From a virus (taxonomy: Duplodnaviria; Heunggongvirae; Uroviricota; Caudoviricetes), in IMG/VR virus record IMGVR_UViG_2534681736_000023: DNA of 10,082 nucleotides. One strand, 5' to 3'. A model generated the notes under the pieces. It made no database searches. It worked only from the letters and a program-made list of their open reading frames with translations, and was not told the origin of the DNA. Positions 4,087-6,153 of the stretch are shown here, piece by piece. Every line of letters starts with the position of its first letter. The stretch's first letter is position 1. The translations under genes were made by a program, and so were the position numbers.

Positions 4087-6153
4087 TCACGATATACGCT
4101 GAAACAGCCCCACACAGTAAGGATATATTGAACTGACCTGAAGTGGACTACAGACCCGCCATGTTCCTGGCAGTGTATTACCGGTTAATGTGGCTGCTTT
4201 CTGAGAGCCCAGTTGAATGCTACATTCTCTCAGTTTACTTCCCGCAAGCACGGCACCTGCGGCATATTTTTCACTGTTACTTATACTGGCCTGAGCAAAG
4301 ACAAATGCCCCAACAGCATGCAAACCACCTGCCGGTGAGCCAGCTGGTCCCTGTGGGCCTGTTGCCCCCCGGGGACCGGGATCACCTTTATCCCCTTTTG
4401 GTCCCTGTGGCCCGGTTGCGCCGGTGGCTCCTTTCTCACCTTTTGCCCCAGGAGCGCCAGTATCCCCCTTTGGTCCCTGAGGACCGGGATCACCTTTATC
4501 CCCTTTAGCTCCCTGTGGCCCGGTTGCGCCGGTGGCACCTTTCTCACCCTTTGCCCCGGGAGCGCCAGTATCCCCCTTTGGTCCCTGAGGGCCAGGATCT
4601 CCTTTATCCCCTTTTGGTCCCTGTGGCCCGGTTGCGCCGGTGGCTCCTTTCTCACCCTTTGCCCCGGGAGCGCCAGTATCCCCCTTTGGTCCCTGAGGGC
4701 CGGGATCACCTTTATCCCCTTTTGCTCCCTGTGGCCCGGTTGCGCCGGTGGCTCCTTTCTCACCTTTTGCCCCGGGAGCGCCAGTATCCCCCTTTGGTCC
4801 CTGAACGCCCCCCGGCCCAGCCGGACCTGCTGGCCCCGTGTCCCCTTTATCTCCTTTCGGACCGGGAACACCACCTCCTGCAGCAGCCTCTTCTGCCTTT
4901 GTTTTCGCTTCATTTGCCACATCCATTGCCGCCTTCACGGCCTTCGGCGTGGCTGCCTTTGTTTCGTCATTACTGTTAGTATCACTGCTTAACTGCACCA
5001 CGCCTTTCTGCGTCGTGCTGGCATCCCGCTGGCTGACCGTATCCGGTTTGTTCTTTGTGCTGTAATCCACCCGCCAGTGGAAATACTGTGTGTCGCCGTA
5101 AACCGTACAGGTACAGACCGTGCCATTAATAAACCCCGTTGCACCGTATTCGCCAATGGTGACCCGGACTATGGCTGCCTCATACTTCCCCATCACCTCA
5201 ATGACACAGCCACCCAGATTAAGTTTTCCCGGTCCGACATCCGTGATGACCTTATTGAATCCCGCATGCAGTGATGCCTTCATCATCCAGTAAGGCTGGT
5301 CAAATGCCCCTTTGGCTTTCAGCCAGGCGACAAACTCGGTCGTGGTCCATTCACCGGCCCCCGTATGAATGTCCCGCCCGTATACTCTGGCTGCTCCCAC
5401 AGTGTTCAGAAACTGCACCTTATCCGGAATATCGTCACCGTTTTTCGCTTTCTCCAGGCATCCGTCCGCTTTGTCCATTGCCGCTTTCACCGCTTTCGGG
5501 GTGGCTGCCTTCGTTTCATCATCACTGTCCGTTGCGCTGCTTAACTGCACAATTCCCTTCTGTGCCGTCGTCGCATCCGGTCCTCCCGGCTCGCCTTTTT
5601 CGCCCTTCTCTCCCCGTTCACCTTTCACACCCTGAAGCCCCTGTGGTCCTGTCTCACCACGCTCACCCTTTGGCCCCCGCTCGCCGGTATCGCCTTTTGG
5701 CCCGGGAATACCCTGTGGCCCCGTGTCTCCCTTATCCCCCTTCGGTCCCCGCGCATTCTCTGCCCGTTTCTTCGCTTCCTCTGCACTCGCCGCTGACGCT
5801 TCTGCACGTTTCAGGATTTCCGCGGCCACTGCCTCCAGCTCTGCAAGGGCTTTCGGGTAATACTGTGCGTCCTCCAGGTCCATCAGAAATTTATTCAGCG
5901 TTCCCGGTGCAGAGTCCGCCTTCACCAGAATGTCACCCACATATGACGGCGCGTACCCTTCCGTGTTCAGCGTCACCCGGTACAGACCCGGCTCAACATC
6001 CATACTGTAACTGCCGGTTTCCCCCGGCTGACCATACGCCACCGTGGTGACAATCACCGTCTCCGTTGTGCGTCGCGCTTTCAGCTCTATCGTGCATCCC
6101 GGTACCGGCTTACCGGCCCCGTCCTTCAGCACACCAGAAATTTTAACCGTCAT
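4087..6153 (-). CDS. stf: Side tail fiber protein (Stf-like) with collagen-like Gly-X-Y repeats (688 aa)
   Basis: Track ORF 4087..6153 (-). The N-terminus [29 protein letters not shown]... resembles the lambda Stf N-terminus as I recall it ([12 protein letters not shown]...). It has two collagen-like tracts ([13 protein letters not shown]...) and two copies of the phage tail-fibre repeat motif (QKG(I/V)VQLSS...[15 protein letters not shown]). A GGTGGA Shine-Dalgarno sequence lies 6 nt before the ATG. Confidence 0.85.
4381..4812. repeat. 108-bp tandem repeat x4, near-identical, encoding 36-aa collagen-like units inside stf
   Basis: Unit starts at 4381, 4489, 4597 and 4705 (ATC(A/T)CCTTTATCCCCTTT...) give an exact 108-bp period with only a few substitutions between units. 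Each encodes (G-X-Y)12, e.g. [22 protein letters not shown](A/P)[13 protein letters not shown]. Confidence 0.8.
4921..5027. repeat. Intragenic direct repeat copy 1 (~105 bp), encoding the phage tail-fibre repeat motif
   Basis: Aligns at roughly 80% identity, by eye, with 5473-5578 (shared ...TCCATTGCCGC(C/T)TTCAC-G-(C/T)TTCGG-GTGGCTGCCTT...GCTTAACTGCAC...). Encodes [33 protein letters not shown]. Confidence 0.6.
5473..5578. repeat. Intragenic direct repeat copy 2 (~105 bp), encoding the phage tail-fibre repeat motif
   Basis: Partner of 4921-5027, about 552 bp away. Encodes [33 protein letters not shown]. Confidence 0.6.

Follow-up and report, generated by a model that had tools for sequence, protein, structure and literature searches.

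The array described here is very probably a coding minisatellite (VNTR) that specifies distal collagen-like shaft sequence in the side tail fibre of a lambdoid prophage. In the window, the 10,082-nt stretch of viral DNA analysed here (IMG/VR record IMGVR_UViG_2534681736_000023), four tandem 108-bp units lie on the minus strand and in frame inside a 688-aa gene in the stf position (4087–6153). Related E. coli strains are polymorphic in the number of these units, and chimeric units within their arrays record individual unequal-crossover events.

A 108-bp repeat in the second collagen segment

TRF reported a period of 108 bp between 4373 and 4804 with 4.0 copies, 95% matches, no indels and a score of 787, together with a nested period of 36 bp (62% matches) inside the array. 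The array is 95.4% identical to itself at an offset of 108, 95.8% at 216 and 97.2% at 324, as against 41–65% at other multiples of 9 along the same stretch and 47–54% in the first collagen segment, which served for comparison; the 108-bp repeat therefore rises far above the Gly-X-Y background. These data confirm the four near-perfect 108-bp tandem repeats described in the initial annotation, and the translation and the Pfam Collagen segments likewise bear out that they are in-frame 36-aa repeats within the collagen-like shaft of stf. The count of four stands, but the unit positions given with it are shifted by ~8 nt: the last 8 nt of its fourth unit (4805–4812) lie outside the repeat, and ~8 nt before 4381 lie inside it. 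In that phase (unit starts 4381, 4489, 4597 and 4705) units 1–3 differ pairwise at 4–7 of 108 positions. Each unit encodes 12 Gly-X-Y triplets belonging to Col2, the second collagen domain, and is itself divisible into three 36-bp sub-blocks that have diverged; read in coding phase, the four units cover residues 452–595 (Table 1). Plus-strand ORFs at 4143–4508 and 4515–4979 were rejected as antisense artefacts of Gly-X-Y coding, every homologue being annotated on the opposite strand.

Table 1 Features of the side tail fibre gene and its repeat array, in window coordinates.
Feature	Position	Strand	Basis or remark
Side tail fibre gene, stf position, 688 aa, intact ORF	4087..6153	-	ORF translation; Pfam phage_tail_N, Collagen, Phage_fiber_2
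PfN, N-terminal tail-attachment domain, aa 1-134	5752..6153	-	PF08400, E=1.5e-41, profile 1-134 of 134
Col1, first collagen segment, aa 136-192, 57 aa	5578..5748	-	Gly-X-Y run; Pfam Collagen, best stretch 135-190
First Pf2 repeat (aa 195-235) and central globular domain (aa 225-372)	5038..5571	-	PF03406 stretch 195-235; PDB match
Second Pf2 repeat, ~aa 377-411	4922..5026	-	PF03406 in two stretches; direct repeat of 5474-5578
Col2, second collagen segment, aa 428-607, 60 Gly-X-Y triplets	4333..4872	-	Gly-X-Y run
Unit 1, aa 452-487	4693..4800	-	identical DNA in all five integral-unit alleles
Unit 2, aa 488-523, GPK variant at triplet 9, private SNPs	4585..4692	-	unit alignment
Unit 3, aa 524-559, GAK variant	4477..4584	-	identical to unit 2 of strain ST130 (L003)
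Unit 4, aa 560-595, terminal type ending GPR	4369..4476	-	array end in other alleles is of the same type
C-terminal 81-aa non-collagen domain, PfC2-like	4090..4332	-	similarity to P-EibA ORF-401 C-terminus

RefSeq homologues of the protein are annotated 'prophage tail fiber N-terminal domain-containing protein', and residues 1–91 match PDB chain 9e7m_Ta ('Tail fiber protein', E=1.3e-28). The central globular domain is related to phage Mu tail fibre protein S, with residues 225–372 matching residues 175–324 of 8ju3_A (E=1.6e-42), and the two Pf2 repeats form a direct repeat pair (D3) of 105 nt with 80% identity. Both Gly-X-Y runs are uninterrupted (PF01391, E=2.8e-36). Col2 is composed of an 8-triplet head, the four 12-triplet units and a 4-triplet tail; it contains 18 KGD/KGE motifs, and proline occupies position X in 20 and position Y in 10 of its 60 triplets. 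The C-terminal domain, presumed to be the trimerisation and receptor-binding tip, gave no Pfam match, PF06820 (PfC) included. BLASTP aligned it to the C-terminus of P-EibA ORF-401, the EPclC prototype, with 32% identity (E=5e-10), and the two have the motifs AVGxFxF, PGTWR and LFQRI in common. Its AF2 model is all-beta (pLDDT 75.6), with no match among solved folds.

The units carry twelve variable sites, ten of them at codon position 3 (P = 5e-4 against 1/3), an excess of third-position substitutions. The variable triplet runs A,P,A,P along the window array and A,A,A,P in another four-unit allele, L001; four-unit arrays are thus found on two backgrounds with differing unit orders. The ongoing homogenisation initially proposed is not borne out, as interior units retain distinct SNP signatures that are common to several strains. 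A simple two-unit block duplication as the source of A,P,A,P was also rejected. Because the identity at the 216-nt offset is not raised above that at 108 or 324, and because unit 3 matches a unit of another allele, the array is a mosaic and not a fresh block duplication.

Array length varies among E. coli alleles

Full-length matches in complete E. coli genomes (n=20) fall into eight length classes, with gene spans of 1851, 1950, 1959, 1968, 1986, 1995, 2040 and 2067 nt. In the nine alleles read, Col2 measures 108, 141, 144, 147, 153, 156, 171 or 180 aa, the remaining protein parts are constant in length and the length difference resides wholly in Col2. These nine alleles contain 2 to 4 units, plus steps of 36 nt and 9 nt (GDK), and a 1-unit form is present among draft-assembly proteins. 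A protein-database search with Pf2, Col2 and the tip, in which the matches listed were all ≤412 aa and mostly labelled 'partial', showed contig breaks and 1- to 3-unit alleles.

Where alleles match throughout the 1,635 nt of the gene that lie outside the array, only the array sets them apart. In particular, L005 and L006 have the same differences from the window over those 1,635 nt and are three GDK triplets apart; L007 and L008 are separated by 36 nt, with the rest of the gene likewise shared, and L001 and L004 by 216 nt and one SNP. The 282 nt at the 3' end of the gene show 0–2 differences among alleles, and in all ten alleles read the ORF is intact and Col1 is 57 aa long. All array length differences seen are multiples of 9 nt (216, 108, 36, 27 and 9), and the array stays in frame in every allele. 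Comparison of homologous prophage stf genes thus bears out the strain-to-strain variation in copy number that had been predicted: unit number differs between strains, as seen in the eight length classes, the Col2-only differences and the chimeric units. The array can serve as a length marker for sub-typing the prophage module.

Reliability of the four-unit count

Ten other, independent assemblies, with contigs of up to 919 kb, carry the 2,067-nt gene without a single base difference, and the exact 688-aa protein occurs on 120 NCBI contigs, one of 5.24 Mb; the exact-protein look-up demonstrates reproducibility and spread, is blind to variants by construction and says nothing of a low mutation rate or of stability. 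Across the family, the assembly hazard that the initial annotation had raised does exist. Some drafts of related alleles are broken within the array, where the partial proteins P0017 (42 member sequences), P0018 (35) and P0020 (22) begin, and short-read STEC genome assemblies may break at this site. These breaks would favour the view that the count of four is itself an artefact of collapse or over-expansion. For this allele, however, the risk is small: the units differ, the longest exact internal repeat of the array is 56 nt, a length within reach of De Bruijn assemblers run at larger k, and L001, the second four-unit allele, comes from a complete genome. Together with the identical DNA in 10 other assemblies, these observations largely refute an artefactual count, which we regard as very improbable.

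Chimeric units and a model for length change

Unit 2 of L002 equals window unit 2 up to position t followed by window unit 4 from t onwards, for t = 36–92; as read from the sequence, the L002 array arose from a window-like one by a single 216-nt deletion. Unit 3 of L001 joins the head of the L004 terminal unit to the tail of L004 unit 1 (t = 27–75) and is, by the same reading, the product expected from an expansion.

We propose that length changes via repeat misalignment, at three scales nested in one another. Whole units would be gained or lost by slippage or unequal crossover between the 108-bp repeats; the 36-nt steps would come from out-of-register pairing at GPQ-GPK-GD, a motif present twice in every unit; and slippage of the 9-nt GGGGATAAA (GDK) triplet would account for the smallest steps. 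RecA, a phage recombinase or replication slippage may carry out these events. The homology has a periodicity of 9 nt and therefore every recombination product is in frame; since the register is imposed in this way, in-frame conservation is no evidence of selection.

Prophage setting

The gene occupies the lambda-type position, in the order J (6997–10071), lom (6305–6967) and stf, all on the minus strand, and lies at the prophage end adjoining btsS. Downstream of stf there is no ORF for a tail fibre assembly gene (tfa / DUF4376), only a 3' remnant: window positions 3974–4042 align only to the 3' end of the DUF4376 CDS in L023. The identical stf allele DNA is found in prophages at three chromosomal att sites, the stf of other prophages at the btsS site is a different one, and in some strains, such as 2014C-4587, stf is split or frameshifted. 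No phage with this C-terminal domain was found in the phage collection, either by tblastn with the whole protein or by blastn with 4087–4900. The DNA matches obtained with the latter begin at query position 290, inside the collagen part, and matches to phage records annotated 'side tail fiber protein' span residues 1–370 only.

Predicted shaft structure and possible function

By analogy with EPclA, three chains would form a collagen triple helix that would hold the 81-aa tip at a distance from the central globular domain. The Col-PfC region of EPclA is trimeric and triple-helical, with 111 residues measuring ~30 nm by electron microscopy (PMC3368898); both the microscopy and the demonstration of the triple helix concern this relative only (PMC3368898). 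Calculated as 36 aa x 0.286–0.29 nm, or ~10.4 nm, each unit would contribute ~10 nm of shaft, and at ~0.29 nm per residue Col2 would be ~52 nm long here versus ~31 nm in two-unit alleles. Unit number may affect adsorption or host range.

We also considered whether the array in non-O157 STEC prophages acts both as a fast-mutating spacer that sets the reach of the tip and as a homology tract for tip swaps between co-resident prophages, a speculative combination that we hold to be quite unlikely. If it were correct, gaining or losing ~10 nm per unit would change adsorption or host range, in line with the effect of a collagen-repeat deletion in the Guarani virophage, and the array would influence which strains these phages lysogenise. 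If fibre length or tip exchange does affect adsorption, the array would be relevant to the spread of lambdoid prophages among pathogenic E. coli. The fibre may, on the other hand, never be assembled on the virion and the variation may be functionally neutral, because only a tfa remnant lies downstream and the tip domain is absent from the phage collection.

Alternative explanations

It is possible, though not probable, that the array is mainly a recombination adaptor, in which low-complexity collagen sequence common to different tail-fibre genes lets distal receptor-binding domains be swapped and copy-number change is a by-product, a reading compatible with a VNTR. The Stf of phage 1720a-02 is 97.3% identical over residues 1–411 and then continues into a different 60-aa collagen segment, tip and tfa-like gene, and protein P0029 consists of this Col2 head and one unit followed, after the shared KGDPGPRG, by a tip of the 1720a-02 type. 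The occurrence of one stf allele at three chromosomal sites and of a different stf in other btsS-site prophages points the same way, and the collagen-like repeats of S. thermophilus phages have been put forward as hotspots of recombination (Desiere et al., as cited in PMC7242381). P0029 is, however, the one hybrid found and is a 205-aa fragment with a doubtful start, a swap at a common motif requires few triplets and not four 108-bp units, and an adaptor leaves unit-number variation on otherwise identical backgrounds unexplained.

Neutral decay in a cryptic prophage, with array length drifting in a fibre that has fallen out of use, is in our view unlikely. The reduction of tfa to a remnant, the lack of the tip domain among isolated phages of the collection and the broken stf genes of some strains are consistent with decay, and the 9-nt periodicity would preserve register automatically. 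Against this stand the ten intact ORFs with their nearly invariant 3' ends, the third-codon-position bias of the unit substitutions and the identity of the allele DNA at three att sites, the last suggesting that the phage or module has moved recently. Because the gene is of the surface or adhesion kind, contains tandem repeats and often changes in length, it could also be taken for a phase-variable contingency locus by which the fibre is turned on and off; with every length difference a multiple of 9 nt and the array never frameshifted among alleles, such a switch is scarcely credible.

Relation to known collagen-like repeats

A coding minisatellite in this position agrees with what is known of collagen-like fibres. 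That the collagen domains of EHEC prophage tail fibres vary in length was already known: Col lengths across EPclPs differ by multiples of three residues (Ghosh et al. 2012, PLoS One 7:e37872, PMC3368898). Polymorphism in repeat number is also well established for BclA, where it affects filament length, and for Lcl, where it affects binding, and variation of the present array is no surprise. Ghosh et al. 2012 (PMC3368898) do not describe the VNTR structure at unit level or the crossover footprints. The protein resembles EPclA-D, especially EPclC (P-EibA ORF-401), in its PfN, its Gly-X-Y domains, a Pf2 between two Col domains and a non-PfC C-terminus (PMC3368898), and as in the EPclC type its gene is placed after J and lom in a lambdoid prophage. 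The GP(Q/P)-GPK-G(D/E) pattern of EPclP (PMC3368898) recurs as GPQ-GPK-GDT at unit junctions. Unlike in EPclC, two Pf2 repeats flank an extra domain of ~150 aa related to Mu protein S, the protein has 688 aa compared to 479–566 aa for the EPclC entries listed, and the 180-aa Col2 is built from a regular 36-aa unit. Lambda Stf (orf-401/orf-314), which acts with Tfa and on which PfN and Pf2 were first defined (PMC3368898), has the same order J, lom, stf and the same PfN and Pf2 domains, whereas the collagen segments and distal domain differ and the downstream tfa chaperone gene is absent here.

Tandem repeats of this kind vary in other collagen-like proteins. In ORF8, a viral protein of the Guarani/Sputnik virophages with collagen-like tandem repeats, an in-frame loss of 81 nt from the repeats in Guarani changed host range (PMC7242381), which sets a precedent for unit loss having a functional effect; the ORF8 unit is 27 nt, its source a eukaryotic virophage, and the proteins are not homologous. 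In Bacillus anthracis BclA, repeat number sets filament length (Sylvestre et al. 2003, as cited in PMC10470788), but BclA is a spore-surface glycoprotein of a Gram-positive organism and the sequence relation is limited to Gly-X-Y (1wck_A, E=1e-3). Legionella pneumophila Lcl and streptococcal Scl1/Scl2 show VNTR-type polymorphism of Gly-X-Y tandem repeats and are likened here by analogy only, being cell-surface adhesins and not phage fibres; NCBIfam scores for these families (168.6 vs 400, 156.7 vs 325 and 137.3 vs 500) fall far short of the cut-offs, and the match is compositional only. The repeat number of Lcl correlates with binding and biofilm formation (PMC6460258). The array described here provides a natural example of a protein spacer whose length outpaces the rest of its gene in evolution.

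The repeat array and its host gene

The array lies on the minus strand, within the intact reading frame of stf, a label given in the initial annotation that is warranted by both position and N-terminal domain. The gene order here is that of lambda (J, lom, stf), and since these genes lie on one side and btsS, btsR and yehS on the other, the window covers the end of a lambdoid prophage adjoining btsS. No tail fibre assembly gene was found downstream of stf (window 2965-4086), only a short tfa-like remnant; in strain 2014C-4587, the 3' end of a tfa-like CDS (DUF4376; L023 4583-5257) is all that window 3974-4042 aligns to. 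The final 81 residues of the protein, the presumed tip, have no Pfam family match. Two plus-strand ORFs antisense to the collagen sequence (4143-4508, 121 aa; 4515-4979, 154 aa) are annotated in none of the related genomes and were rejected as most likely artefacts of the stop-poor Gly-X-Y reverse complement.

Features of stf, its repeat array and the neighbouring genes
Feature	Position	Strand	Basis or remark
stf, 688 aa	4087-6153	minus	intact ORF
Repeat array	4373-4804		Tandem Repeats Finder
Unit 1	4800-4693	minus	
Unit 2	4692-4585	minus	
Unit 3	4584-4477	minus	
Unit 4	4476-4369	minus	
Prophage tail fibre N-terminal domain (PfN)	aa 1-134		Pfam, E=1.5e-41
Collagen triple-helix repeats (Col1, Col2)	aa 136-192; aa 428-607		Pfam and run reading; uninterrupted Gly-X-Y
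Phage_fiber_2 repeats (Pf2), two			Pfam
Central domain between the Pf2 repeats	aa 225-372; 5038-5481	minus	matches 8ju3_A residues 175-324 (tail fibre protein S of phage Mu), E=1.6e-42
Direct repeat, 105 nt	5474-5578; 4922-5026		copies 552 nt apart with 80% identity; codes for both Pf2 repeats
Ail/Lom protein	6305-6967	minus	upstream of stf
Tip attachment protein J, C-terminal 1,024 residues	6997-10071	minus	upstream of stf
dinI-like ORF, 82 aa	3464-3712	plus	intact; other side of stf
btsS, btsR, yehS			chromosomal; beyond the dinI-like ORF and tfa-like remnant

Tandem Repeats Finder assigned the array a period of 108, 4.0 copies, 95% matches and 0 indels (score 787), with a nested 36-bp period (62%). 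Self-identity of the array is 95.4%, 95.8% and 97.2% at offsets of 108, 216 and 324 nt, compared with 41-65% there at the remaining offsets divisible by 9 and 47-54% in the other collagen segment, and the repeat therefore stands well above what Gly-X-Y composition alone gives. Both measures bear out the earlier description of four 108-bp tandem repeats; the position given with it, 4381-4812, is shifted by about 8 nt, leaving the final 8 nt of the fourth unit beyond the repeat. In that phase, any two of units 1-3 have 4-7 differences over their 108 positions. Read on the coding strand, Col2 consists of a head of eight triplets, four 12-triplet units and a tail of four triplets, and the unit consensus has one variable residue, A or P (GAK or GPK at triplet 9). 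Each unit holds four KGD/KGE motifs. Motifs of this type stabilise collagen-peptide triple helices without hydroxyproline, and Ghosh et al. (PMC3368898) argue likewise, in general terms, for charged residues.

Array length differs between strains

A megablast search of 5,426 complete E. coli genomes with the gene as query gave coverage of at least 80% in 28 genomes, mostly non-O157 Shiga-toxin-producing strains. The 20 full-length matches fall into eight spans: 1959 nt (12 matches), 1851 nt (two) and 1950, 1968, 1986, 1995, 2040 and 2067 nt (one each). Nine of the 20 alleles were read in detail. In all nine, Col1 is 57 aa, the non-collagen parts are constant in length and the entire length difference resides in Col2, which measures 108, 141, 144, 147, 153, 156, 171 or 180 aa. 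These lengths represent two, three or four whole units together with 36-nt changes and one to four extra GDK triplets, every one spelled GGGGATAAA. The strain-to-strain difference in copy number that had been proposed is thus present, and among stf homologues including draft-genome proteins the range is one to four units: P0009-P0012 are one-unit alleles and P0007 is a diverged lineage with three.

Closely related pairs locate the change precisely. L005 and L006 have the same differences from the window across the remaining 1,635 nt but unequal arrays, three GDK triplets different in length; L007 and L008 have common differences from the window elsewhere in the gene and arrays that differ in length by 36 nt; and between L001 and L004 the difference amounts to one SNP and two whole units. 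The array changes faster than any other part of the gene.

Recombinant units and probable sequence constraint

The 15 units of the five integral-unit alleles contain 12 variable sites. Unit 1 is identical in all five, the terminal unit has its own SNP signature, and unit 2 of strain ST130 has exactly the sequence of window unit 3. In the closest allele, the two-unit RM10410 (99.0%), unit 2 is a composite whose head equals that of window unit 2 and whose tail equals that of window unit 4, with the crossover somewhere in positions 36-92; a window-like array that underwent a single unequal crossover of 216 nt would yield exactly this unit. Unit 3 of FWSEC0008 joins a terminal-unit head to a first-unit tail, which matches the product expected of an expansion. 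Two backgrounds carry four-unit arrays, and the order of the units differs between them, indicating that the four-unit state arose more than once. GPQ-GPK-GD spans the unit junctions and recurs inside units of the GPK variant, and the 36-nt steps are consistent with misalignment at this motif. Phase variation was rejected, as all the length differences found (whole units, 36 nt and GDK triplets) are multiples of 9 nt and none of the alleles has a frameshift in the array.

Third codon positions account for 10 of the 12 variable sites (P = 5e-4 against one third), which argues for constraint on the amino-acid sequence; in-frame preservation was not counted as evidence of selection because the homology has a 9-nt period. 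Neutral drift of the array in a cryptic prophage is a less probable alternative reading: stf has no tfa gene downstream, and the tip is absent from every isolated phage in the collection searched. Against drift stand the intact ORFs, the near-invariance of the 3' end and the third-position bias. The collagen sequence may also act as a recombination adaptor at which distal domains are exchanged, a role compatible with length variation. Some support comes from the phage 1720a-02 Stf, which shows 97.3% identity across aa 1-411, beyond which the collagen segment, the tip and tfa are all different. P0029, a hybrid tail-fibre fragment compared with window 4333-4476 and L010 3022-4728, carries the Col2 head and one 36-aa unit of this gene, joined at a common KGDPGPRG to a 1720a-02-type collagen tail and tip (…FEYFPL); it looks like the result of a crossover within collagen sequence that exchanged the distal domain.

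Four is a reproducible count

The exact 688-aa protein is found on 120 contigs in NCBI, the longest of 5.24 Mb. At ten loci from this look-up (L013-L022; window ~3234-7785) the gene is identical at 2,067 of 2,067 bases, and the identity extends into the flanks, for 853 nt on the downstream side and up to 1,632 nt on the upstream side. As an exact look-up retrieves identical proteins only, these matches demonstrate reproducibility and spread, not stability. The loci are prophages at dinI-isochorismatase-aspS and yciE/yciF/trpA, while the window copy adjoins btsS. Other strains with a btsS-site prophage carry a different stf, one of them split and frameshifted (L023 5491-7202). The longest exact repeat within the array is 56 nt, so assemblers using longer k-mers are able to resolve it, and an assembly artefact was rejected. 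The assembly hazard raised initially does exist for the protein family: three 'partial' proteins, P0017 (42 member sequences), P0018 (35) and P0020 (22), start within the array, where their contigs must terminate. Assembly would be more difficult for alleles whose units resemble one another more closely, L001 for example.

The shaft and related collagen-like proteins

The array is a coding VNTR, polymorphic and containing recombinant units. For the related protein EPclA, Ghosh et al. (2012, PMC3368898) demonstrated a trimeric state, a CD spectrum typical of collagen for the Col-PfC fragment and, by EM, a length of ~30 nm for the 111-residue Col domain; from these data we infer that Col2 forms a trimeric collagen triple helix serving as a stalk. 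Each unit would add 36 x ~0.29 nm, or roughly 10 nm, giving a calculated Col2 length of ~52 nm here versus ~31 nm in two-unit alleles. Shaft length may matter for adsorption or host range. Other systems offer precedents: exosporium filament length is set by BclA repeat number (Sylvestre et al. 2003, as cited in PMC10470788), binding by Lcl correlates with repeat number (PMC6460258), and a virophage gained a broader host range through an 81-nt deletion in its collagen-like repeats (PMC7242381).

The feature is real and was correctly interpreted, but it is an ordinary one, a coding minisatellite within the gene for a collagen-like tail fibre of a prophage. By sequence the protein belongs with the EPclC type of EHEC prophage collagen-like proteins (PfN, Col, Pf2, Col and a non-PfC C-terminus), and its C-terminus resembles P-EibA ORF-401 (32% identity, E=5e-10). 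It differs in its additional Mu protein S-related central domain, which the EPclC examples of Ghosh et al. (Table 3, 479-566 aa; PMC3368898) appear to lack, judged from their lengths. Membership of the streptococcal Scl or Legionella Lcl families was rejected, model scores being far under the cut-offs and the matches compositional. Ghosh et al. (PMC3368898) reported that Col domains vary in length within each architecture, typically by multiples of three residues, so the central idea of the initial annotation is already published for the family; the exact protein is also public, and the unit-level reconstruction contributes detail only. The 105-nt direct repeat encoding the Pf2 repeats could permit deletion of the central domain by recombination like that in the array, which would yield the shorter PfN-Col-Pf2-Col order of the published EPclC proteins.
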